From the NCBI GenBank assembly GCA_964358205.1, contig CAYHNZ010000002.1, positions 1 through 63,239 on the forward strand: a DNA stretch of 63,239 nt. The letters are read 5' to 3'. Both the position numbers and the translations under genes were made by a program. The stretch is from an uncultured Candidatus Saccharibacteria bacterium (lineage in GTDB: Bacteria; Patescibacteriota; UBA1384; 2-12-FULL-50-11). Each line of letters opens with the position of its first letter. The stretch's first letter is position 1. Of this stretch, positions 7,804 through 63,239 are shown one piece after another. The notes under the pieces were generated by a model. It had not been told where the DNA came from. It searched no databases and was given only the letters and a program-made list of their open reading frames with translations.

Positions 7804-8731
7804 CCAACCAGTCGAAGAAGAGAAGCTAGCGGAAGCGCAAAGCGAAATCATGCCTCACCATTCAGCCGAGGCCAGCTTTGATGAGTCGGCGAGCAATGTC
7901 GACGAAGAGGCAGAAAAGGAAACCGCGGTTGAAGAAGGGGCCGGTCTAGACCAAGCCTTACCGGCCGAAGTAGCGGCCATTCATGTCGGCAACGAATCGG
8001 CCATGGCTTTGAACAAAGCCGAGCCGTCGAAACTGGAGCGCAAAAAGGCCAAGAAAGTTGAACGCTCTGTTGAGAAAGCCGAAAAGGCCGCAACCAAAAA
8101 AGAAGTGGAATTAAAGAGTCGTCGCTCCAAAAAATACTTAGCCGCTCGAGCCAAAGTTGAGACAGGCAAGCTTTATTTATTGGCTGATGCCCTGACGTTA
8201 GTTAAAGAACTATCGATGTCTAAATTCGATGGTTCGGTTGAAATTCATCTTCGCCTAAACAAGAAAAAAGCTAAGGGTTCAACGGAATCGAGCCGCGGCG
8301 TCGTCCACCTGCCACACGGTACGGGCAAGGAAAAGAAAGTCGTCGTTTTGGACGAAAAAATGATTGACGAGATCGCCAAGACCAAAAAAATGGATTTTGA
8401 CATCTGTATCGCCAGCCCAGAATTAATGCCGAAAGTCGCTAAAATTGCCAAAATTTTGGGTCCTAAAGGTAAGATGCCCGACCCCAAATCCGGCACCGTC
8501 ACCAACGATCCGAAGAAAGTGATGGAAGAAATCAAGGGTGGTAAAACCGAATACCGCGTTGACGCCAGTGGAATTGTTCATCAAATAATCGGCAAGGTTT
8601 CCTGGGAAGATACAAAGTTGGCCGAAAACGCCAAGGTAGTGATGGCCATCTATCCGAAGTCGCGTCTCAACAGCGCCTTTGTCACTGCTTCAATCGCTCC
8701 GTCAATCCCGCTCGATTTGTCTAAATTCTAA
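7781..8731 (+). CDS. rplA: 50S ribosomal protein L1 with an N-terminal extension of about 100 aa
   Basis: The L1 core runs from SKKYLAARAKV... to the end. ATG at 7781 overlaps the pth 3' end. The start is uncertain; an internal Met at ...SAMALNK is possible. Confidence 0.85.
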   Translation: MARPKTINQPVEEEKLAEAQSEIMPHHSAEASFDESASNVDEEAEKETAVEEGAGLDQALPAEVAAIHVGNESAMALNKAEPSKLERKKAKKVERSVEKAEKAATKKEVELKSRRSKKYLAARAKVETGKLYLLADALTLVKELSMSKFDGSVEIHLRLNKKKAKGSTESSRGVVHLPHGTGKEKKVVVLDEKMIDEIAKTKKMDFDICIASPELMPKVAKIAKILGPKGKMPDPKSGTVTNDPKKVMEEIKGGKTEYRVDASGIVHQIIGKVSWEDTKLAENAKVVMAIYPKSRLNSAFVTASIAPSIPLDLSKF

Positions 8732-8746
8732 ATTCTAGAATCTAAA

Positions 8747-13587: not shown

Positions 13588-13612
13588 GAATTCCCAAATT
13601 CTAAATGCGAGA

Positions 13613-13647
13613 ACCGCCCTCCGCCAGCCGGCGGAAGGGCGGTTTTT
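13613..13647. terminator. Intrinsic terminator (convergent)
   Basis: Stem ACCGCCCTCCGCC...GGCGGAAGGGCGGT followed by TTTTT. Confidence 0.85.
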
Positions 13648-17158: not shown

Positions 17159-17686
17159 ATGATGCCTGAAAAACTTCAGACCATAGTTTTTTTAGTTCGT
17201 CACGGCGAGACCGATTCAGGTTATAGTCAGCAAGCCGGTATTGATAGTCAGCGACAGCTGACAGATGTTGGTCGGGAGCAATCCGTCGCCGTCGGGCGAT
17301 ATTTGGCGGCATTTCAGCCAGTGGCAGTTTATTCTAGTCCACTCGATCGCTGTCAAGAAACGGCCAAAATAATTCAATCCGAAATTTCTCCACCCCCACC
17401 CATTATTTTAAATAAGGCGCTATTCGAGGTCTATTCGGCTGTGCCAAAGATACGTCATGAGGTAGGGGAGAGGGGAGAGACGATTTTTACGACTATTCTG
17501 GCCGCGCATAAGGGCGAGCAGGTTGTCGCTGTCACCCATCAATACATTATTGGCTACATTGTTGCTGATTTCTTGAAGATCGAGTATCGCGATCTGCCGT
17601 GCGAATTTGCCGATGTCTACCGCTTGGTTTTTGCTGGCAATATCCTAGTTGAGGCGATGCGTCTCCAGCCAGCCAAGGCAAGGTAG
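17159..17686 (+). CDS. Histidine phosphatase (phosphoglycerate mutase family)
   Basis: RHGET catalytic motif (LVRHGETD). A later TH motif is present. Confidence 0.85.
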   Translation: MMPEKLQTIVFLVRHGETDSGYSQQAGIDSQRQLTDVGREQSVAVGRYLAAFQPVAVYSSPLDRCQETAKIIQSEISPPPPIILNKALFEVYSAVPKIRHEVGERGETIFTTILAAHKGEQVVAVTHQYIIGYIVADFLKIEYRDLPCEFADVYRLVFAGNILVEAMRLQPAKAR

Positions 17687-17716
17687 ATTTAAGAATTTAG
17701 ATTTACGATTCAATAA

Positions 17717-18895
<1,179 letters not shown>

Positions 18896-39390: not shown

Positions 39391-39592
39391 GTTTACTGCC
39401 TTTAAACCTTGTGAGGCAAACGAACTCACTTCGGTCGAGGTCAACAGGACCACGCGCTGGGTACGATACCCAGGGCGCTTTCTCGCTGTTCAATCTCCAA
39501 GAAGCCCGCGAGATGACTTCAGGTTGAGTTAAATTTAGCACTAGGGTGCCAGATTGTCTATACTTATCGTCCGAAAAATTAGCTCTATTATC

Positions 39593-39760
39593 TACTTCAG
39601 ACTTTAGCCTTGAGACTTCAGACTTAGTAGAAAATTATTGCCTTAATTTTCTACGGATGAAAGAAGGTACATCGAGCTCGTCTTCGTCTGTACCTCCATC
39701 TTTGATGTCACGACTGCGACCCTTAGTGACAAAAGCATTGTCGGCTGTTTCGGTCTCGAC
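39593..39760 (-). repeat. Copy of the ftsZ 3' end (last 42 codons, stop and 3' UTR), fused to the Nudix gene
   Basis: Offset by 731 nt from 40324-40491. 39620-39712 is identical. 39713-39760 differs at 13 of 48 positions, all synonymous. Confidence 0.95.
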
Positions 39761-40267
39761 CGTTTCGAGCCACGCTTGAACCATCTCTTCACCGTTTTTA
39801 AATGCCATTCTCTCGGGCAACTCATTATAGGAAAACCATCGCAATTCTTCGATGTCATCGCCTGGCGTTAAAACACCCCCGATCACCTCGGCAATAAAAC
39901 AGATATTCAGGGTTTTCTCGCCGGTGGTTCCGTAACTATCCATGAAAAATCCGAGCATATCCCCCAGCTCAACAGACAGTCCGGTTTCTTCTTTTGCCTC
40001 TCTCACCGCACCGTCTTCTGGTTTTTCACCCAAATTTAAGAAGCCGCCGATTACATCCCACCTTCCCTTGGCAGGCTCAATCCTTCTTTTACCTAATAAA
40101 ACTCTATTCCCGTCAGTTATAAGAGTACTTGCTGTGGGCTTAGAATTTAGATAAACAACAGAGTTGCAGTTTGAGCACGCATATCTTTCTGGTTCGCCCT
40201 GGTGGTCGTATTGGATACTACAGTTAGGACAATATTTATAATCCATGTTGGTATGATAGTAATTCAT
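39635..40267 (-). CDS. NudC-like Nudix hydrolase (N-terminal zinc ribbon) carrying the FtsZ C-terminal linker and peptide
   Basis: CPNC...CSNC ribbon and Nudix box GGFLNLGEKPEDGAVREAKEETGL. The last 42 aa ([10 protein letters not shown]...[15 protein letters not shown]) are identical to the FtsZ C-terminus. Confidence 0.85.
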   Translation of the reverse strand: MNYYHTNMDYKYCPNCSIQYDHQGEPERYACSNCNSVVYLNSKPTASTLITDGNRVLLGKRRIEPAKGRWDVIGGFLNLGEKPEDGAVREAKEETGLSVELGDMLGFFMDSYGTTGEKTLNICFIAEVIGGVLTPGDDIEELRWFSYNELPERMAFKNGEEMVQAWLETVETETADNAFVTKGRSRDIKDGGTDEDELDVPSFIRRKLRQ

Positions 40268-40323
40268 TGCCTAGCCAATGAATGGTTCTCTGTTTGAAAA
40301 CTTGATTCTTGTGACTTATTATT

Positions 40324-40491
40324 TACTTCAGACTTTAGCCTTGCGACTTTAGACTTAGTAGAAAATTATTGCCTTAATTTTCTACGGATGAAAGAAGGTA
40401 CATCGAGCTCGTCTTCGTCTGTACCTCCATCTTTGATGTCACGGGAACGGCCTTTGGTCACAAAGGCGTTGTCGGCTGTTTCAGTTTCAAC
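40324..40491 (-). repeat. ftsZ-resident copy of the duplicated 3' end
   Basis: See 39593-39760. Confidence 0.95.
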
Positions 40492-41592
40492 TGGAAAAGA
40501 TGGTTGTGGTTGGATGGGTGTTTGGTGACTAAAAAATGGAATGTTTGAGGCGAAAGGCGCTTGAGGTGCGCCGAGAGTAGCACCAAAACCTACCGGCTCT
40601 TCTGAACCAAATCGTGATCTTGCCTTTGGAACTGGTTTAGATATTTCATTTTCAAAACCAGTCGCGATAACCGTGACTTTAATCTCGCCCGACATCGAAT
40701 CATCGACAGTGGCGCCGAAAATAACATTGGCTTCGGGATCGGCCGCTTCAGTGATAGCCTTAGACACCTCCTCAACTTCATACATAGTCATATCAGGTCC
40801 GCCGGTGATGTTATAAAGAATGCCCCGCGCCCCATCGATTGATAGCTCAAGCAGAGGCGAGTCAATCGCCTGACGAGCCGATTCAATCGCTCCATTTTCA
40901 CCAGCCGCCAGACCGATACCCATTAAAGCCGATCCGGCATCTTTCATAATTGTTCGAACGTCAGCAAAGTCAACATTAATAATAGCCGGTACGACGATAA
41001 TTTCAGAAATTCCCTGAACGCCTTGGCGTAGGATATCGTCAACAATACCAAAGGCGTCGCTCATCGAAGTTTTCTTGTCGATGACCTGCAATAGGCGGTC
41101 GTTGGGAATTGTAATTAATGTATCGACCTTCTCCCGGAGTTCTTCGATACCGAGTTCAGCGATTTTTTTGCGACGAAGACCTTCAAAACTAAACGGTTTA
41201 GTAACAACACCGACAGTCAAAGCACCGAGTTCTTTGGCAATCTGGGCGATCAACGGTGCTGCACCAGTACCAGTACCACCGCCAGCGCCACAAGTGACAA
41301 AAACCATATTAGCCCCCTTAAGCACTTCGTAAATCTCGTCCTTGTTTTCCTCTGCTGACTTACGCCCAACCTCCATATCGGCCCCCGACCCTAATCCTTG
41401 GGTAGTTTCCTTGCCGATTTGAACTTTAATGGGCGCTGGATTACCCATTAACGCCTGCGCATCAGTATTGATAGCGATAAACTCGACGCCACGAACTCTA
41501 GCGGCGATCATTCGGGCGACGGCGTTGCCGCCAGCACCGCCGATACCGCAGACTTTAATACTCGCGAACGTGTCTAAAGTTTCCTTATTCAT
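40366..41592 (-). CDS. ftsZ: Cell division protein FtsZ
   Basis: Tubulin signature [17 protein letters not shown], and the conserved C-terminal peptide DVPSFIRR. Confidence 0.97.
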
Positions 41593-42916: not shown

Positions 42917-43043
42917 GGAGTTGTTATTCCACGACTTACGCACAGCAAAGAATAAGTGGTGGAAACACGACGCGACACAAAACCCATTGAGGAGATTTAG
43001 ATACGTAAGTCGTGTATTCAAAAATCGCGGAGCGACACCACAG

Positions 43044-43078
43044 TTTAGACTTGAGACTTTAGACTTTAGACTTTCGTC
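43044..43078. repeat. Heptanucleotide array (5 units)
   Basis: TTTAGAC TTGAGAC TTTAGAC TTTAGAC TTTCGTC. Confidence 0.85.
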
Positions 43079-43098
43079 GATGACTCCCCTCCCCCTTT

Positions 43099-43581: not shown

Positions 43582-44028
43582 TTAGCCGTTTTGAATTTTC
43601 TGACGAAGAATTTGGGAAACCAAACTCATATCGGCCTGGCCTTTAAGCTCGGCACTCAAGGCCCCCATCGCCTGGCCCATCTGGCTCATCTCGGTTGGAT
43701 TGGCTTTGAGATATTTTTCGACGACAACGATTACGGTCGCTTCGTCCATCTGTTCGGGAAGATATTTTTTCAAGAGCATCATTTCCTGATACTCTTTGTC
43801 AGCTAAATCGATTTTATCGATATCGCGGTAAATCGCTTCGGCTTCGACCCTTTTTTTGACCTCACGCTGAATAATAGTCGTCACTTGCTGATCGTCGAGC
43901 GGCTTACCGGTGTCGATTTCGGCGTTTTTAATAATAGATTTCAAGAAACGCAAAGTTTCTTTGGTAAAATCGTCACCGGCTTTAAGGGCGGCCAAAAGGT
44001 CAGCTTCAATGGAGGTAATTAGATTCAT
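43582..44028 (-). CDS. GatB/YqeY domain protein
   Basis: 148 aa with LLAALKAGD...TLRFLKSIIKNAEI, typical of YqeY. Confidence 0.85.
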   Translation of the reverse strand: MNLITSIEADLLAALKAGDDFTKETLRFLKSIIKNAEIDTGKPLDDQQVTTIIQREVKKRVEAEAIYRDIDKIDLADKEYQEMMLLKKYLPEQMDEATVIVVVEKYLKANPTEMSQMGQAMGALSAELKGQADMSLVSQILRQKIQNG

Positions 44029-44064
44029 TAATTTAGACTTTAGCCTTCCGCCTTTAGCCTTGTG

Positions 44065-44335: not shown

Positions 44336-44615
44336 GCGACTGCGTCGCTGGCTTTTTTGTGAGGGTGGAGGGGGTTACTCTCGCTAGAGAGCGAGCGAAC
44401 TTCGGTTCGCGACAATTGCGAAGCACCCCCTACAACATTAATGAAGCCGGGGTTTTGGCGTCTTAACAGACAAGCCTCAATCCGCTCGACCGGTTCGAAC
44501 TAAAGCAGTTTAGTTCTCACGAGCGGTCTCGCCCCCGCACGCTACGCTATCGCGAATAAGGTAAAGAGTAACTCGCTGGACCGCCAGCTGGCGGTACCAT
44601 GGCTCGTCACTTTTT
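44336..44615 (+). repeat. Structured mosaic repeat, copy B (long form with a 95-nt internal insertion)
   Basis: The 5' 99 nt are near-identical to copy E. 44435-44530 is an insertion shared only with copy A. The 3' block is shared with A, C and D. Confidence 0.9.
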
Positions 44616-44708
44616 GGCTAGTAATAACTATGGCTTGCGGTTTTTTATCTTGCACCAGAAGTGGATTCGTACTATTATCCTTGCAGGCAACGCTACGAGG
44701 TGAACCTT

Positions 44709-45052: not shown

Positions 45053-45787
45053 CTAAATGTCGAATTCTAGGATCAAGGCCTGGTGATCGGAGACGACAGC
45101 GTCAGACGCCTCAAAACTTTTTACTTTGACTTCTTTGCTGACAAAGATGTAGTCACAGGCTTCGGTTTTGCGAGTTAAAGATGTTCGTGTGGTTTTGAGC
45201 TTAGCTCTTAGGGTTAGGTTCGTCAGAACTTTATTAATTTGCTTGATTGATACGGATTCTGGAACGAGGTTAAAGTCCCCAGTTAGAATTACTGGACCGT
45301 CCAGCGAGGCGGCGTAATCGGCGATCATCTGGCATTGGCGCAGAGATTCCTCGTCCCCATTTTTATGGTGAGGAACGTGATAGCCGTGGTGATTCAGGAT
45401 GTGCAACTTTTTCTTGCTCGTCAATTCAATTACAGCATGCTGGAAGTTGCGCGTGTTGGTGTCGTCCTTGATTACGTCCAAGTTCTCTATGAACTTTTGA
45501 TGAGTAAAGACCGTTTCTGACCGCGTGATCGGATAATGACTAATAATGCAGTTGCCAAAGTTGGCTTTGCGGTTCATGTAATTGAAACTGAAAACCGGCG
45601 AGAGAAAGACGTAAGGAAGTTCGACCTCCTTTCGCAGGTCTTCGATAGTGCCAAGGAACATTCCGTCGCCTCCAGGTACATCCAGCGCTTCTTGCAAACA
45701 CAGAATATCGGGTGCTTCATCTTTGATGAACTCCCCTAATTGGTACGGTAGTCGTCCGGCTCAGACATTGAGCTGAATCAGTTTCAT
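45053..45787 (-). pseudogene. Endonuclease/exonuclease/phosphatase (EEP) family gene interrupted by an in-frame TGA
   Basis: ATG at 45787 reads MKLIQLNV, then TGA (45761-45763), then the same frame continues AGRLPYQLGEFIKDEAPDILCLQEALDV...GDFN...SDH. Confidence 0.75.
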
Positions 45788-46335
45788 TAGAATGTTTTGA
45801 GACTATTAAAATTAATCGCAAGCTTCACTTGTTCTAGCTCGTCGCCAGTTAATAACCGTGTTTGGTCGGCGACTTCTTGGGCGGAGGCTAGGCCAATACC
45901 TAGGCCGTTGGGGCGGGTGTAAAGCGTGACGTGAAACGGTTGGGTTGGTATTTCTAGATCTAGAGCTTTTCGCATTCCAGCAAAGAACTCCTCTGCCCCG
46001 CTCGTTTCACACATGATTATGACTGTTTTTTTATCGCGCTTCTCGGCAACTCTAACTTCGTCCTTGAATCTGCTTATACTGATGGGCATTTCTATAAGTA
46101 GATGATTTGATTCCTCTAGAATCTTTTCTTCCGCTTCTTCGAGTGTTACACCAAGCTTCTCCGCCAAAATCGGTGCGTACTTCTTAACCGAAAATATACT
46201 CAAATGAAACTCCGGCTTAGCAACTAACTTCTCGCCGTCGACTTCAATCTCGGGAGCAATTTTAAGTTGTGGGAGTTCTAGGCCGACATAACCGCCCTCG
46301 TACCGATAACCGTCCGGAAGGTTCGCTGTGCTCAT
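45787..46335 (-). CDS. 2H phosphoesterase superfamily protein (LigT-like)
   Basis: Two HxS/T motifs (FHLSIF, FHVTLY). There are TAATG stop/start overlaps on both sides. Confidence 0.75.
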   Translation of the reverse strand: MSTANLPDGYRYEGGYVGLELPQLKIAPEIEVDGEKLVAKPEFHLSIFSVKKYAPILAEKLGVTLEEAEEKILEESNHLLIEMPISISRFKDEVRVAEKRDKKTVIIMCETSGAEEFFAGMRKALDLEIPTQPFHVTLYTRPNGLGIGLASAQEVADQTRLLTGDELEQVKLAINFNSLKTF

Positions 46336-46781
46336 TACAGCCCCCAATCTATTAGTTCTGTGAATCTGACATAGAATCCATACGGATCAGTCATTCGAAA
46401 ATCATGCCAAGTTCTTTTGCCGTCTTTTTTCTCTATGAGCTCTTGTACAATATTCTCGCTTAAGTCTTTGGATGCCTTTTGATAAAAAGTATGGATATCT
46501 TCGACCGGTATTGTCAGTGAAACCGCATAACCTCGTGTAGTTTTCTTATCGAACTGTTTGAAATACGACTGCTCGTAAACTCGTTCATCGTCTCCATAGA
46601 AATTTATCATCGTATTACCGAGCGGGTCCCGTCTTTGCATAACCATGTAGCCGGGATATTCTCCCTTAACATCTTCCGATATGATTTCAAAACCAAGTTT
46701 TGAATAAAAATCCTGAACCGGAGCAAACTCCGGCACATGAAGCTCTATAATTAAATTGTTTTTGATTGGTATTTTCGGCAT
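46335..46781 (-). CDS. Glyoxalase/bleomycin-resistance (VOC) family protein
   Basis: IELHVPEFAPVQDFYSKLGFEII beta-alpha-beta-beta-beta pattern. Confidence 0.75.
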   Translation of the reverse strand: MPKIPIKNNLIIELHVPEFAPVQDFYSKLGFEIISEDVKGEYPGYMVMQRRDPLGNTMINFYGDDERVYEQSYFKQFDKKTTRGYAVSLTIPVEDIHTFYQKASKDLSENIVQELIEKKDGKRTWHDFRMTDPYGFYVRFTELIDWGL

Positions 46782-46803
46782 TACTCAAAGCTATCTCAGG
46801 GCG

Positions 46804-47277
46804 TCATGATTTCGTCTCAAGCGCGAGTGTAACTTTTGTCTTTATCGCTTCAATACAGTTCGGTAACCTTCGGGCCATTCTTGGGCTCAGAAGCTTGGAA
46901 CACTCATCGATTGGTTTGAAGGCGTACTCGTCTAACTCCTCGTTTTGTAGACTGATTTTTCCAACCTGTTCTTTCGTAAGGACGCCACCGTAAAAGAAGA
47001 ACTTGAGAGAATCTTCGTGATTTTTGGCTGTGTAATTGTGATCAACACAGAGTAACTGTTTGTAATCAAGCTTGAGACCTACCTCCTCTAAAACCTCCCT
47101 ACCGCAGGTCTGGAGCGGAGACTCTCCCTCATCACTTACACCGCCTGGAATATTCCAATGATCTCGGTAATTTGGCTTAACGATCAACATCTTGCCTTGT
47201 TCGTCGAAAATGAACGCACCTGAAGCAACGATTTTCCTTGATAGGGATTTGATATATTCATCGTGAGGTAAATACAT
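46804..47277 (-). CDS. Nudix hydrolase
   Basis: Nudix box GGVSDEGESPLQTCGREVLEEVGL. Confidence 0.88.
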   Translation of the reverse strand: MYLPHDEYIKSLSRKIVASGAFIFDEQGKMLIVKPNYRDHWNIPGGVSDEGESPLQTCGREVLEEVGLKLDYKQLLCVDHNYTAKNHEDSLKFFFYGGVLTKEQVGKISLQNEELDEYAFKPIDECSKLLSPRMARRLPNCIEAIKTKVTLALETKS

Positions 47278-47283
47278 GTCCTC

Positions 47284-47327
47284 ATTCTACTCCCGAACCT
47301 GCTGATCCGCCAGCTGGCGGAGTCGAG
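47284..47327 (-). promoter_or_regulatory. Cassette intergenic module, copy m1 (with an inserted CCGCCAGCTGGCGG hairpin)
   Basis: On the minus strand: CTCGAC-hairpin-GGTTCGGGAGTAGAAT, then 6 nt, then ATG. Confidence 0.6.
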
Positions 47328-47918
47328 CTATTTCTTTTTTGCTAAGAGCCAGGCGGGCTCGGGGATGAAAGTGATTTCTGGCCAGGCATCGATCTCGTGC
47401 TCGGTAAAGTCGTAGTATTTTTGGTAGGCCGTCTCGACACTACCGTGCATTGCATCTTTCCAGTCAAAACCGAGTTTACTGGCCAACTTTTTTATATCTA
47501 ATTCGTTCGGTGCTTCTAGCTCGACAAATGTCGGAATCCACGGCCAGGTATCGATGGTGATTTCGCAGTCGCCAAGGGCCCACTTCTCTCTTTTGGTCTC
47601 TTGGTAGGATTTTTGTACTAGGCCAATGGCCTTAAGCAAGCTGACAGTTTTTTCGAAGTCCCCTACCGTCGTTTCGATCTCTTGTGTACCGTGAAGGGTG
47701 CGATCATTCAGTTGTTTATAAGAAAAAGTAATCTTGTCGCCTTCGTCGCGAACGCGGATCCAGCCACCGATTTCTTTTAGTCGCGAATCTGGATAATCAA
47801 AAACACAGCGACGCATCTGACGTTCGGAGTGCACTAATTTAGCGCCGATTGTACTCAACTTGCCACGTAGATCGTCGGCATCAATATCCAAAAACTTAGC
47901 CTCAACCTCTACCTGCAT
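47328..47918 (-). CDS. CYTH-domain protein (CyaB/ThTPase-like)
   Basis: N-terminal EVEAKF (ExExK) motif in a protein of about 196 aa. Confidence 0.85.
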   Translation of the reverse strand: MQVEVEAKFLDIDADDLRGKLSTIGAKLVHSERQMRRCVFDYPDSRLKEIGGWIRVRDEGDKITFSYKQLNDRTLHGTQEIETTVGDFEKTVSLLKAIGLVQKSYQETKREKWALGDCEITIDTWPWIPTFVELEAPNELDIKKLASKLGFDWKDAMHGSVETAYQKYYDFTEHEIDAWPEITFIPEPAWLLAKKK

Positions 47919-47924
47919 TTCCCA

Positions 47925-47953
47925 ATTCTACTCCCGAACCCAGAATTGTCGAG
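47925..47953 (-). promoter_or_regulatory. Cassette intergenic module, copy m2
   Basis: On the minus strand: CTCGACAATTCTGGGTTCGGGAGTAGAAT, then TGGGAA, then ATG. Confidence 0.6.
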
Positions 47954-47981
47954 CTACCGAGCAATGCAATTGAAGATTTGG

Positions 47982-48371
47982 TCAGTTGAGTTTCAACAAC
48001 AACTCCTCTGGAGAGTTTATAAAATCGCGGAACAATACATTCCGACACAGCTCGTTGGCATCTTTGGTGAAAGCGTATATCGGCTTATTCAATGCGACCG
48101 CGCAACCAATCTCTAGGGTCGTGCTAACTCCCGAATAACCATCTTTGTTATAGATGTAAACCACATCAGCCGTACGTATTTTTTGAAAGTGGTCATGAGT
48201 CAATCCGAGGACGACATAGTTCTTGTTTCTGGCCGACAGCTGATTCCAACCATCTTTTGTTTCGTATAGGTAGGGTTCGTAAACGATAATTCCAGCTTCT
48301 TTCAGCCTGCGACCGAACTCTCTGATATCTGACTTGAACCTCCTACTACCACACAGTACGACGGACTTCAT
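47982..48371 (-). CDS. Nucleoside 2-deoxyribosyltransferase-like small Rossmann protein
   Basis: MKSVVLCGSRRF...IIVYEP N-terminus in 129 aa. The family call is from memory and is moderate. Confidence 0.6.
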   Translation of the reverse strand: MKSVVLCGSRRFKSDIREFGRRLKEAGIIVYEPYLYETKDGWNQLSARNKNYVVLGLTHDHFQKIRTADVVYIYNKDGYSGVSTTLEIGCAVALNKPIYAFTKDANELCRNVLFRDFINSPEELLLKLN

Positions 48372-48447
48372 CCTTCTACAGTTACACAGTCGAGCAATGA
48401 ATTACAATATTTTCCACCTGCCTAAGCCAGTTTCTTTAACGTTCCTG

Positions 48448-48471
48448 TATCCCGAACCTGGGAATGTCGAG
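48448..48471 (-). promoter_or_regulatory. Cassette intergenic module, partial copy m5
   Basis: On the minus strand: CTCGACATTCCCAGGTTCGGGATA, directly after the def stop. A second CTCGAC...TAGAAG piece sits at 48373-48394. Confidence 0.45.
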
Positions 48472-48476
48472 GAAAA

Positions 48477-49031
48477 TTAGACATCAACTAACTCGGCTGT
48501 ATTTTTGTATTCGTCAAAATCGGCTACGAATTGAATGGTTTTCAAATCGGCACGCTCAATAAACAGCACTCCATTCAAATGGTCGATTTCATGCTGAAGA
48601 ATTCGGGCTAATTTACCGTCAAAGCTTTTTTGTTGATGATTACCATTCTCATCTAGGTAACGTACCTCAATTTCGGCCGGTCGGATAACCGCCGCAATTA
48701 AAGGCAAGCTACTTAAGCATCCTTCCGGAAAAGTATTGTTATTTTTTGAATGCTTAATAATAACTGGATTAATAAATGGAAGGTAAAGACCTTCCCAAAA
48801 GACGACAGTTAACGATTTAGAAATGCCTATTTGCGGCGCCGCAAGAGCGACTCCCCTACCCAGCCTTCGGATCTTATTCAATGTTTGCTTGAGTTTCTGA
48901 ATATCTTTAGTTGTTTGGCCACAACTAATTTCGTTGTTTGTGATTTGCTTCGTCTTGGCGCGAAGGATAGGATCGCCCAACCAACGAATTTCTTCTGGGA
49001 ATTTTGCTAGTTTTCTCAACTCTTCTTTCAT
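48477..49031 (-). CDS. def: Peptide deformylase
   Basis: Motifs GVALAAPQIG, EGCLS and HEIDHLNG. Confidence 0.93.
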   Translation of the reverse strand: MKEELRKLAKFPEEIRWLGDPILRAKTKQITNNEISCGQTTKDIQKLKQTLNKIRRLGRGVALAAPQIGISKSLTVVFWEGLYLPFINPVIIKHSKNNNTFPEGCLSSLPLIAAVIRPAEIEVRYLDENGNHQQKSFDGKLARILQHEIDHLNGVLFIERADLKTIQFVADFDEYKNTAELVDV

Positions 49032-49037
49032 AATTAG

Positions 49038-49066
49038 ATTCTACTCCCGAACCTAGAAATGTCGAG
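49038..49066 (-). promoter_or_regulatory. Cassette intergenic module, copy m3
   Basis: On the minus strand: CTCGACATTTCTAGGTTCGGGAGTAGAAT, then CTAATT, then ATG. It starts directly after the upstream stop. Confidence 0.6.
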
Positions 49067-49681
49067 TTAGTCGTTAATAATTATTGCTCCGCTATTTGTC
49101 AGGAATGTAGTAGCGCGACCCCTAGCTCTGTGATGACGATCAATGTTCAAGAGGTTGTCCTTATATTCCGGAACACCCCAATGCGGCAAGATGAGCTTGT
49201 TATACAAGCCTAACCCTTCCTCAATAATTTCTGGTACGTCGGCCAAATCTTCCGGATTATCTTCGCTGAGTTCAATATTTGGTGCAACGACCATGGCACC
49301 GGCGCTCTCACCGGCATACACTAACCCATTGGTTAAAAGCTTTTTAATGATTTTATCGAATCCCGACTTAGCCATCGCCCAGCGGAGATAATGGGTGTTA
49401 CCGCCGGCTATCCAAACTCCGTCAAGTTTCTCGAGCAATTTCTTAAGCTCCCCAGTTTTTCCAATAAAATCAAGCAATCTCACCGGGATAAGCTCGAGTC
49501 CGTATCCACGCAGCTGCTTTTCTGAACTATCTAACCAAGGAGTTGAGCCCTTTGCTATGTAAGGTTCTGCCGCGTCCGCAATCCAAGCAATCTTCGGCGG
49601 ACTATTTCGCTTTGGAAGTAATGAAAAATAAGCTTCTTCGTAGGCAGGTTGTAACCCCTGTGATACTAGGAAAAGCTTCAT
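49067..49681 (-). CDS. Peptidase S51 (peptidase E-like)
   Basis: GGNTHYL and GESAGAMV motifs. Confidence 0.82.
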   Translation of the reverse strand: MKLFLVSQGLQPAYEEAYFSLLPKRNSPPKIAWIADAAEPYIAKGSTPWLDSSEKQLRGYGLELIPVRLLDFIGKTGELKKLLEKLDGVWIAGGNTHYLRWAMAKSGFDKIIKKLLTNGLVYAGESAGAMVVAPNIELSEDNPEDLADVPEIIEEGLGLYNKLILPHWGVPEYKDNLLNIDRHHRARGRATTFLTNSGAIIIND

Positions 49682-49687
49682 TTTCTG

Positions 49688-49716
49688 ATCTTACTCCCGA
49701 ACCCAGAATTGTCGAG
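49688..49716 (-). promoter_or_regulatory. Cassette intergenic module, copy m4
   Basis: On the minus strand: CTCGACAATTCTGGGTTCGGGAGTAAGAT, then CAGAAA, then ATG. It starts directly after the upstream stop. Confidence 0.6.
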
Positions 49717-50247
49717 CTACTGCAGGAACTTGCCTACTTCTTTGTCAGAGAGGAGGCGGTAAGAATTGCAGAAACTAATCATTCCTTTGCTGGGTTGATG
49801 AGAGAACCCGATGTATTCAACCTTCATCTTCTTCTGTTGGGCTTTCTTTATTGCTGGCGAAAGATCGGTGTCGGAAGAAACGAGAATCGCCTTATCACAA
49901 GTCTCCTCGTATGCAGAAACCAATAAATCAGTTGCCATTTGAACGTCAACACCCTTCTCGTGATATCGTCCGTCAGATTTCATTAAATAACCGAAGCTAT
50001 AACGCAAGCCGGACTTTTTTAATAGAGCGATTAGCTTCTGTTGATTAGAGAAAAGCTTTTCGGTCTTTTTTGTGCCATCTTGGCGGATCCGGCCAATATA
50101 GTAGCAAGCGTCGATAACATTGTTATCATCAGCTACGAATTTAACGAAGGCACGAAAGTCAAATTTTAGTAAATCATTTAGCTTCAGGTCTTTTAGCTTG
50201 AAGTAAAAATTACTACCATCTATCAGAATAGTTACTCGAGGTCTCAT
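49717..50247 (-). CDS. NYN-domain (LabA-like) protein
   Basis: ILIDGSNFYF and SSDTDLSPAIKKA motifs. ATG at 50247. Confidence 0.82.
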   Translation of the reverse strand: MRPRVTILIDGSNFYFKLKDLKLNDLLKFDFRAFVKFVADDNNVIDACYYIGRIRQDGTKKTEKLFSNQQKLIALLKKSGLRYSFGYLMKSDGRYHEKGVDVQMATDLLVSAYEETCDKAILVSSDTDLSPAIKKAQQKKMKVEYIGFSHQPSKGMISFCNSYRLLSDKEVGKFLQ

Positions 50248-56291: not shown

Positions 56292-56306
56292 TACCCTATA
56301 TTAACC

Positions 56307-56456
56307 AAAAAGTGACGAGCCATGGTACCCCAGCGAGTTAGTTTTTACCTTGGTCGCGCCAGCGTAGCGTGCGGGGGTAGGGAGCGCGAGGGGCTAGGGG
56401 ACCGCCTCGCAATTAGGCCCCCTGGTCCTCGCAGAAGCCAGGCGGCTGCAAGCCGC
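56307..56456 (-). repeat. Structured mosaic repeat, copy D (most divergent helices)
   Basis: Same block order as copy C, but the helices are rewritten with compensatory changes: GCGGCTTGCAGCCGC, and GCGAGGACCAGGGGG...CCCCTAGCCCCTCGC. Confidence 0.88.
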
Positions 56457-62344: not shown

Positions 62345-62944
62345 TTACCCGAACTTACGAATCACCCCCCTGACCTTGCCCTGAATTGTCACCTTCTTAA
62401 CTCGAATAGGCTGATATTTTTTGTTAGCTGGCTGAAGACGAATATGGTCTTTCTCGCGATAAAAGCGCTTTAAGGTCACATTGTCTTTATCAATTAGAGC
62501 TACAACGATATCGCCATTTTTTGGATAGTTGCATGGTTCTATCACCACATAGTCGCCATCCAGAATGCCGTCGTCGATCATCGAATCCCCTTTCACCTTT
62601 AGGGCGAAGACATTTTTACTCATCATATCGCGAGGAATTTCTAGGGATTCGCTAGTTTTAATTGCCTCAATTGGTTTACCAGCTTGGATAGCACCGAAAA
62701 GCGGAATATTGAAGCCCATAAAAGCACTGGATTCATCAACTTCGATCGGCTTAAGGGAGCGATAACCAGTTTCGCCAGTAGCTAAGTAACCCTTAAGTTT
62801 CAAATTATCAACATGCTCGGCGACGGTGGCAACCGATGAAAACCCAAAATGGTCAGCAATCTCCCGATAACTTGGCGCATAGCCGTTAACTTCTAGGTAC
62901 TTATCGATAAAATCTAAAATTTGTTTCTGTTTAGGTGTTAACAT
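62345..62944 (-). CDS. lexA: LexA repressor
   Basis: N-terminal winged helix (LTPKQKQILDFI...YAPSYREIA). S24 peptidase with VKGDSM and a downstream Lys. Confidence 0.92.
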   Translation of the reverse strand: MLTPKQKQILDFIDKYLEVNGYAPSYREIADHFGFSSVATVAEHVDNLKLKGYLATGETGYRSLKPIEVDESSAFMGFNIPLFGAIQAGKPIEAIKTSESLEIPRDMMSKNVFALKVKGDSMIDDGILDGDYVVIEPCNYPKNGDIVVALIDKDNVTLKRFYREKDHIRLQPANKKYQPIRVKKVTIQGKVRGVIRKFG

Positions 62945-63056: not shown

Positions 63057-63111
63057 GACGGCTGGCTCCGACACGCCCGAAAAGCTCGAATCTTTGCCTC
63101 AAGGCAGCCTC
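63057..63111. repeat. Direct repeat, copy 1 (55 nt or more)
   Basis: GACGGCTGGCTCCGACACGCCCGAAAAGCTCGAATCTTTGCCTCAAGGCAGCCTC recurs exactly at 63185-63239. Confidence 0.95.
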
Positions 63112-63184: not shown

Positions 63185-63239
63185 GACGGCTGGCTCCGAC
63201 ACGCCCGAAAAGCTCGAATCTTTGCCTCAAGGCAGCCTC
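63185..63239. repeat. Direct repeat, copy 2 (truncated by the window end)
   Basis: Exact copy of 63057-63111, with a period of 128 nt. Confidence 0.95.

Follow-up and report, generated by a model that had tools for sequence, protein, structure and literature searches.

In the leaderless promoters of Actinobacteria and Deinococcus, the start codon follows a -10 element of the form TANNNT at a distance of about 6-7 nt; the leaderless transcriptome of Mycobacterium tuberculosis, which Cortes and colleagues are said to have described in 2013 (cited in PMC12641261), is an example. In the RDRM/DdrO-type regulons of Deinococcus, the operator motif overlaps the promoters of leaderless genes, RDRM being a 17-bp palindrome with a known repressor. 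About the transcription signals of the largely uncultured bacteria that belong to the candidate phyla radiation (CPR), to our knowledge, almost nothing is known. Reuse of upstream sequences has been described as putative mobile promoters, whose operational definition asks for an identity of 80% or more across 50 nt or more, at -150 to -50 before non-paralogous genes, a region that mostly excludes the -10 (Matus-Garcia, Nijveen and van Passel, NAR 2012; commentary PMC3575422). Correia elements, ERIC and REPIN are promoter-bearing miniature repeats (PMC3575422). Here we analyse a 63,239-nt stretch of contig CAYHNZ010000002.1 (the window) from a Berkelbacteria-like CPR chromosome of Hainich groundwater, in which a 29-nt module recurs immediately upstream of unrelated small genes. 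The module is very probably a conserved, reused sigma-70-type promoter from which small accessory genes would be expressed as single leaderless units within a hypervariable island.

The window holds four copies of the module core GGTTCGGGAGTARRAT, all on the minus strand (47284-47299, 47925-47940, 49038-49053 and 49688-49703); shuffled sequences predict 0.13, and none of 100 shuffles reached four. Three of the copies extend to the full 29-mer CTCGACAWTTCYRGGTTCGGGAGTARRAT (47925-47953, 49038-49066 and 49688-49716; 0.00 expected from shuffles). Exactly 6 nt separate the end of the last hexamer from the ATG of the Nudix (47277), CYTH (47918), def (49031) and peptidase S51 (49681) genes. The initial annotation of this DNA, which had reported a shared module with a fixed 6-nt gap before these four minus-strand genes, is borne out by the four cores and three full 29-mers found against about zero expected by chance. 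Eight contigs from several separate Hainich groundwater samples carry the same assembled arrangement, which is therefore no assembly artefact. Outside gene starts, the 63-kb window contains no copy of the module. The copies, from upstream to downstream, are:

49688..49719, minus strand: module m4; TAG (the stop codon of the NYN gene), then CTCGACAATTCTGGGTTCGGGAGTAAGAT, with TCGACA, a 16-nt spacer and TAAGAT, 6 nt and the S51 ATG.
49038..49069, minus strand: module m3; TAA (the S51 stop codon), then CTCGACATTTCTAGGTTCGGGAGTAGAAT, 6 nt and the def ATG; 10/12 consensus positions.
48450..48471, minus strand: degenerate module copy CTCGACATTCCCAGGTTCGGGA (nhmmer E=1.2e-5), ending before the -10.
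47925..47956, minus strand: module m2; a TAG that does not terminate the upstream gene, then CTCGACAATTCTGGGTTCGGGAGTAGAAT, 6 nt and the CYTH ATG; 10/12 consensus positions.
47284..47330, minus strand: module m1, split; TAG (the CYTH stop codon), CTCGAC at 47322-47327, a 22-nt hairpin replacement, the core GGTTCGGGAGTAGAAT at 47284-47299, 6 nt and the Nudix ATG.

Three modules (m1, m3 and m4), rather than the two named at first, directly follow the stop codon of the upstream gene. The TAG before m2 is not the NDT stop codon, which is a TGA further upstream. In m1, the 7 nt between CTCGAC and GGTTC are swapped for the 22 nt TCCGCCAGCTGGCGGATCAGCA (47300-47321). The copy described as split before the nucleoside 2-deoxyribosyltransferase-like (NDT) gene does exist, as the partial copy CTCGACATTCCCAGGTTCGGGA at 48450-48471; it has no -10 hexamer, and about 75 nt of other sequence follow it before the gene begins. 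The NDT orthologue in one related locus (L136; related loci are cited by L numbers) is preceded by an intact module with a 6-nt gap.

The architecture of the module is that of a core promoter. In the window copies, a -35-like TCGACA is followed by a 16-nt spacer and a -10-like TAGAAT or TAAGAT, and m3 and m2 are the top two sites (10/12 positions each) in a sigma-70 consensus scan of 45-51 kb. In the sigma-70 and terminator scan of this 6-kb region, no terminator-like site was found in the spacers between module-driven genes. A relaxed search and a profile search yielded an alignment (A2) of 27 unique compact copies from at least 10 populations. In this alignment, the TCGAC of the -35 is invariant (27/27 for C at the second -35 position), and the last hexamer takes the forms TAGAAT, TACAAT, TATAAT, TAAGAT, TAAAAT, TAGGAT, TATTAT and TAAAGT. 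The first two -10 positions (T27 and A28) are invariant and the fifth and sixth (A31 and T32) are conserved in at least 90%, while position 29 is G, C, T or A, a pattern of variation that matches the information profile of a -10 element. Consensus rank, the TAnnAT-type variation of the last hexamer among about 30 copies and the invariance of TCGACA at the 16-nt spacing all favour the original suggestion that TCGACA, 16 nt and TAGAAT form a -35/-10 pair. Between the hexamers, GGGAG is nearly invariant. Other promoters keep CTCGACA at the -35 and have a different spacer (those of an M15 peptidase gene in L140 and L144, a dCMP deaminase gene in L144 and two L122 genes), so that the module spacer is favoured and not obligatory.

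Every copy aims at an open reading frame (ORF), with a gap to the start of 6 nt in 11 copies, 7 nt in nine and 8-10 nt in a few. The single copy with a 17-nt gap (L055) has a Shine-Dalgarno-like GGTGAG of its own. It lies in a leadered variant of the unit (L055 1270-1640), which consists of the module, the 17-nt gap with GGTGAG, a 65-aa ORF, a terminator-like hairpin, a split module and a methyltransferase gene.

The spacing between -10 and start codon is not peculiar to the module. A TANNNT ending exactly 6 nt before the start is found at 13 of 69 crude gene calls in the window (0.87 expected). Among 207 gene calls of Berkelbacteria loci that do not carry the module, 22 have it against 2.7 expected, and a lesser surplus is seen at 7-9 nt. 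Non-module genes with a -10 at 6-9 nt (gene starts of the window, L136-L144, L122, L055 and L017) favour T-15, G-14 and G-13, with G-14 present in 34 of 50, and their -35 signal, cTTGnCa, is weak. T-15 G-14 G-13 looks like the mark of an extended -10-like class of leaderless promoters in the lineage. The module has A at -14, yet a good -35; a good -35 in the module versus an extended -10-like element in the other genes is the classical either/or pattern of two promoter classes. Where the window has clear Shine-Dalgarno sites, they stand 3-7 nt ahead of the start, for instance before the RNR gene (AAGGAGG followed by 7 nt) and at 62944 (AGGAG followed by 3 nt). The 6-8-nt gaps and the lineage-wide -10-to-start geometry point to leaderless or near-leaderless transcripts, as the initial annotation had proposed, and all the computational tests at hand agree with this reading. 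Literature searches on CPR, Patescibacteria and Berkelbacteria turned up nothing specific, neither on leaderless transcription nor on this motif.

Third codon positions are 30-79% identical between orthologues of the CYTH, the glyoxalase-like and an 18x-residue protein (unk18x), with unk18x, at about 0.30-0.35, near random, and the modules of these same orthologues are 76-90% identical. As the modules are similar despite saturated third codon positions, the whole unit, including the spacer positions G17, G18, T19, T20, G24 and G26, is selectively kept. Module similarity across species therefore reflects purifying selection and not merely recent copying.

The initial annotation had raised the possibility that the motif is absent elsewhere or missing from relatives; related genomes do carry it. 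Across genome and metagenome scans and orthologous loci obtained through island proteins, at least 10 related populations hold about 35 further copies; the compact ones of the alignment number 27, three or four more lie in L149 and about six copies are split. Searching species-representative genomes with the bare 16-mer gave, among the matches listed, mostly chance hits, with real copies in two Berkelbacteria genomes (L017, L050, L055). A 22-base pattern retrieved only 7 contigs from metagenomes, each with a gene start 6-7 nt past the module, which shows that outside this lineage the exact compact form is uncommon. Viral contigs gave no module, and the three matches among them were unrelated and without a -10.

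Two further groups of matches deserve mention in their own right. In a Parachlamydiaceae metagenome-assembled genome (MAG; L097 5291-5322, JBDHQB010000005.1), the nearly identical sequence CTCGACAATTTTGAGGTTCGGGAGTAGAAT combines TCGACA, 17 nt and TAGAAT with a 38-nt leader to ileS, beside a tmRNA gene; this is probably an ordinary sigma-70 ileS promoter, similar by convergence. Four Chloroflexota MAGs (L008, L088, L089, L093) share the stretch GGTTCGGGAGTARRATC[CG]GTCCAGCACC, which contains the same 16-mer at an apparently homologous locus, with TTGACA just upstream of the 16-mer in three of the four.

The genes downstream of modules belong to roughly 20 mutually unrelated families. Those tested against Pfam are Nudix, CYTH, def, peptidase S51, NDT, SET, HAD and two methyltransferase types, as well as F420-ligase-like, alpha/beta hydrolase, Vut_1 transporter, AAA_33 kinase, SDR and EEP-family proteins. 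No family was found for unk18x or for a 147-aa protein, both downstream of modules; 2H-phosphoesterase-like and PALP-like proteins were assigned by eye only.

In the window, the modules punctuate a run of genes on one strand. The run and its tail contain:

49717..50247, minus strand: NYN-domain gene, first of the same-strand run, no module of its own.
49067..49681, minus strand: peptidase S51 gene, 204 aa (Pfam Peptidase_S51), downstream of m4.
48477..49031, minus strand: peptide deformylase gene def, 184 aa (Pfam Pep_deformylase), downstream of m3.
47982..48371, minus strand: NDT gene, 129 aa (Pfam Nuc_deoxyrib_tr).
47328..47918, minus strand: CYTH gene, 196 aa (Pfam CYTH), downstream of m2.
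46804..47277, minus strand: Nudix gene, 157 aa (Pfam NUDIX), downstream of m1.
45053..46781, minus strand: island tail without modules, three genes.
46335-46781, minus strand: glyoxalase-like gene, sub-threshold Pfam match only (E=0.01).
45787-46335, minus strand: Berkelbacteria-specific protein of 182 aa, no family found (unk182).
45053-45661, minus strand: EEP-family gene, in the island tail.

Within the tail, the glyoxalase-like and 182-aa genes overlap (ATGA) and a gap of about 125 nt precedes the EEP gene. The 182-aa protein has homologues in MAGs only, and the named ones are labelled Candidatus Berkelbacteria. The run forms an island between DUF218 and rpsU, flanked upstream by CCA-enzyme, DUF3048, HIT and DUF218 and downstream by rpsU, YqeY, YbeY, FtsA, FtsZ and RNR. 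The window as a whole is chromosomal (CysRS, RF, L1/L10, TGT, SecDF, FtsA/FtsZ, class II RNR, CCA-adding enzyme and type IV secretion system ATPases), and no tRNA or Rfam family was detected in it. Gene content between DUF218 and rpsU differs in each relative examined (window 45053-50247, L136, L140, L142 and L144), as the following islands illustrate:

Window: NYN, S51, def, NDT, CYTH, Nudix, glyoxalase-like, unk182, EEP.
L136: unk157, NDT, CYTH, hydrolase, GDSL, Nudix (minus strand), glyoxalase-like, unk186, CYTH.
L140: 109-aa protein, M15, glyoxalase-like, unk183, EEP.
L144: EamA, 147-aa protein, CYTH, dCMP deaminase, hydrolase, M15, Nudix (minus strand), 147-aa protein, SDR, PNPOx, unk184.

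In L144, the module or a close variant precedes 7 of 11 forward genes. The presence of the module is not fixed per gene, since orthologues exist with and without it. The glyoxalase-like gene has a module in L125, L136, L140 and L142 and none in the window; the S51 gene has one in the window and, in another neighbourhood, in L149, and none in L150 or L151; the unk18x gene carries one in L122, L143 and L144 and is elsewhere translationally coupled to the upstream gene. The CYTH orthologues in L136 and L144 bear modules too. A comparison of L122 with L138 showed no clean insertion or deletion of a module between the same gene pair, because the neighbours differ (PNPOx-unk18x in one, Ham1-unk18x in the other). 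The likeness to a cassette array that had been suggested holds in part: the island is hypervariable and its orthologues occur with and without the module, whereas there is neither an integrase nor an attC-like site, and it is therefore not an integron. The impression of cassettes is thus correct in so far as promoter and gene form autonomous units within a variable region.

The window contains further repeats. A 175-nt direct repeat with 91% identity (39586-39760 and 40317-40491) overlaps with the 3'-terminal parts of a Nudix gene (39635-40267) and of ftsZ (40366-41592), and an exact 55-nt direct repeat (63057-63111 and 63185-63239, 128-nt spacing) sits at the extreme window end. Periodic A/T-rich repeats of the TTTAGACTT / TTAGAATT type lie upstream of several genes (8700-8746, 17673-17722, 35593-35640, 43028-43080 and 44023-44061) and may be UP-element-like or curved DNA.

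The model we consider very probable is as follows. The module would constitute a complete core promoter with a -35 of TCGACA, a 16-nt spacer and a -10 of TAGAAT, more generally TAnnAT, at which RNA polymerase is predicted to start at the A of the ATG or 1-2 nt before it. Each small accessory gene would then be an autonomous leaderless transcription unit whose message is translated without a leader. The same promoter, spacer included, would have been spread before roughly 20 unrelated families and maintained across species by purifying selection. Each unit would need only 35-38 nt from the upstream stop codon to the ATG, and so units could be gained, lost and reshuffled without operon context, which would fit the hypervariable content of the island.

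Several observations sit less easily with this model. The promoter role is inferred from sequence alone, and a plain promoter leaves the near-invariant spacer positions G17, G18, T19, T20, G24 and G26 unaccounted for; the C at the second -35 position, invariant in 27/27, likewise goes beyond it. For the conserved spacer (GGTTC...G.G) and this C, an extra protein contact, by a regulator or between polymerase and spacer, is the likeliest explanation. In about 10 copies, the triplet before CTCGAC is a TAR that does not end a long upstream ORF. The copies were partly collected by core similarity, which inflates the apparent conservation of the core, a bias that the orthologue comparison offsets only partly. 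Lastly, the split copies m1, L017, L055:1627 and L055:4245 hold 22-56 nt between CTCGACAWTTCC and GGTTC, with both halves kept.

As an insert of 22-56 nt displaces the -35, nothing but the core and the -10 is left for the split copies to use, and in relying on core and -10 alone they would resemble most leaderless promoters of the lineage. Their inserts, which harbour GC-rich hairpins, are mutually related (...TGGCRG..(N)..ACR before GGTTC). L123:1450 has insert sequence of this kind ahead of GGTTC, with no CTCGAC box upstream. Read as a sigma-54 (TGGCAC-N5-TTGC) or extracytoplasmic function (ECF) sigma factor site, the TGGCRG box of the split copies does not fit when judged by eye.

The insert of m1 includes the palindrome CCGCCAGCTGGCGG (47307-47320), which, as noted before, also occurs in both copies of a large repeat (132-145 and 44581-44594). 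This second intergenic repeat, AAAAAGTAACTCGCTGG(A/G)GTACCATGGCTCGYCACTTTTTGG, spans 1-171 (copy A) and 44450-44620 (copy B); shorter relatives occupy 34209-34276 and approximately 56292-56340. Copy A shares 95% identity with copy B over 171 nt, and both have the palindrome inserted at CTGGA^GTACC. The fold z-score of the repeat is -2.0, no Rfam match was obtained for either copy, and copy B is situated upstream of rpsU. A one-mismatch relative of the palindrome occurs in a strong intrinsic-terminator-like hairpin, AACCGCCCTCCGCCAGCCGGCGGAAGGGCGGTTTTT, at 13600-13645.

Among the other explanations, the one that survives best extends the promoter model and does not exclude it. The spacer TTCYNGGTTCGGGAG and the CTCGAC box might be bound by a lineage-specific regulator, or the module might be the preferred promoter of an alternative sigma factor, either of which would co-regulate a set of house-cleaning and accessory enzymes. 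We regard this as possible, with less confidence than the promoter model itself. Spacer positions are conserved like the hexamers across species with saturated synonymous sites, the second-position C of the -35 does not vary and the copies are clustered in islands; an operator would also suit the enrichment of small hydrolases and nucleotide-metabolite enzymes downstream (Nudix, CYTH, NDT, HAD, 2H-like, glyoxalase-like, methyltransferases). However, the downstream functions are mixed and include def, the Vut_1 transporter, a SET-domain protein and SDR; the spacer has no dyad or direct-repeat symmetry save a weak TTCnnGG/TTCnGG repeat; no conserved regulator gene lies beside the islands in any locus, and some related promoters work with other spacers.

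A more elaborate version, which we put forward tentatively and consider unlikely as a whole, treats the module as the self-contained, lineage-specific head of an expression cassette made of stop codon, -35, factor-binding spacer, -10 and leaderless start. A dedicated Berkelbacteria regulator, or a contact of the polymerase, would recognise the spacer, and the near-identical copies would double as portable homology through which recombination could swap module-plus-gene units among genomes, giving an integrase-free analogue of the integron. Such swaps would be plausible in bacteria for which a dependence on DNA uptake is assumed.

That recombination is the primary function, with the module as an attC-like or dif-like site or a patch of homology and promoter activity secondary, appears very unlikely to us. 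Island content does differ in every relative, the S51, M15 peptidase, unk18x and 147-aa protein genes appear in different neighbourhoods together with the module, and, like attC sites, modules mostly sit flush against the upstream stop codon. At 29 nt, though, it is half the length of the shortest attC and has neither the R''-L''/L'-R' architecture nor palindromic arms. No tyrosine or serine recombinase and no transposase was found by Pfam in 40 window ORFs or in the Pfam tables of L128-L145 and L149-L151, and breaks in synteny do not fall together with modules on both sides. Half-modules exist (left only after the GDSL gene of L136, right only at L125:2114) and insertions fall at the same junction; these prompted us to consider a recombination breakpoint between the left and right halves. 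Variable positions of the left half, however, track the downstream gene, as those of a promoter should, with AATTCCT before the glyoxalase-like gene in both L125 and L142 despite different upstream sequence, which is evidence against such a breakpoint.

Two readings at the RNA level, both raised as alternatives in the initial annotation, fare worse. If GGGAG served as a Shine-Dalgarno sequence on polycistronic read-through RNA, the module would be a ribosome-binding or translational coupling element. GGGAG is nearly invariant, and as there are no terminators between the genes, read-through RNA containing the module probably exists. But GGGAG ends 12-13 nt from the ATG, against 3-7 nt for the clear Shine-Dalgarno sites of the window, and is therefore in the wrong register; the TAnnAT pattern and the TCGACA 16 nt upstream would serve no purpose, and the 17-nt-gap copy brings its own GGTGAG. 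We consider this reading highly improbable.

We give just as little credence to a structured RNA or RNase processing unit by which a polycistronic transcript would be cut into monocistronic mRNAs. CTCGAC can pair with G(T)TCGGG, with standard pairs in 96.9% of helix cells, and the insertions of the split copies fall in the would-be loop. Over the 27 copies, however, neither the CTCGAC/GTTCGGG nor the ATTCT/AGAAT helix covaries (score 0.076, mean of shuffles 0.083; the observed value was equalled or exceeded in 400-473 of 500 shuffles), at most one pair is changed on both sides, and the commonest variant, G22 to A in five copies, disrupts a pair. Compensatory changes are seen inside the insert hairpins (ACCUC/GAGGU in L017, ACUCU/AGAGU in L055:1627), but the third relative of the insert, L123:1450, has not retained the insert hairpin. 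No Rfam match was obtained at the gathering threshold or at E<=1 in the window, the island and the related loci, apart from L097, where the unrelated tmRNA was hit.

A selfish miniature repeat (MITE, REP or Correia-like) with an outward promoter by chance is hardly credible: near-identical intergenic copies are many per genome and small GC-rich palindromes CCGCCAGCTGGCGG insert into the module and into another repeated intergenic module, but the module lacks terminal inverted repeats and target-site duplications, orientation and ATG register are strict in essentially all copies, none lies off gene starts in the 63-kb window, and the copies are kept at orthologous positions across species. A DNA-uptake sequence, parS and dif were ruled out by eye on the grounds of copy number, clustering and missing symmetry.

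The module is thus left as a concrete candidate promoter for Berkelbacteria, a lineage in which, to go by the spacing of -10 elements and starts, about a fifth of crude gene calls may be leaderless. A leaderless share of this size would bear on gene calling, start-codon assignment and the way expression tools are designed for these bacteria. As a marker of a hypervariable island of single-gene units, the module could also tag accessory genes in metagenomes, and it offers a clean case for promoter reuse and for selection on an entire spacer.

Set against the known systems, the closest likeness is to the leaderless promoters of Actinobacteria and Deinococcus, with TAnnnT 6-7 nt before the ATG and no Shine-Dalgarno sequence, here lineage-wide. 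Those promoters usually keep only the -10, sometimes extended, whereas here a 29-nt unit with a -35 and the whole spacer is repeated before unrelated genes and across species, in a host of the CPR. With RDRM/DdrO regulons the module shares a conserved motif that overlaps the core promoter of many diverse, often leaderless genes; unlike RDRM, it has neither dyad symmetry nor a candidate regulator. The resemblance to integron cassette arrays lies in small unrelated genes on the same strand, a repeated element starting at the stop codon and content that varies between relatives. However, no integrase was found, 29 nt compare with 57-141 nt for attC, whose secondary-structure architecture is missing, and integron cassettes are mostly promoterless while the units here each have their own promoter. 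Correia, ERIC and REPIN elements are likewise short repeated intergenic sequences able to supply a promoter, but terminal inverted repeats and target duplications are missing from the module, which keeps a strict start-codon register and is conserved at orthologous sites.

Putative mobile promoters (PMC3575422) are highly similar upstream regulatory sequences before non-homologous genes, within and between genomes, whose mode of spread is unknown, and in this the module is like them. With 29-32 nt at about -38 to -7, it falls outside their definition, though the concept of promoter reuse still applies; unlike them, it would be a complete core promoter fused to a leaderless start and clustered in hypervariable islands. 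The mechanism would match that of known leaderless promoters, and the repetition before unrelated genes matches promoter reuse.

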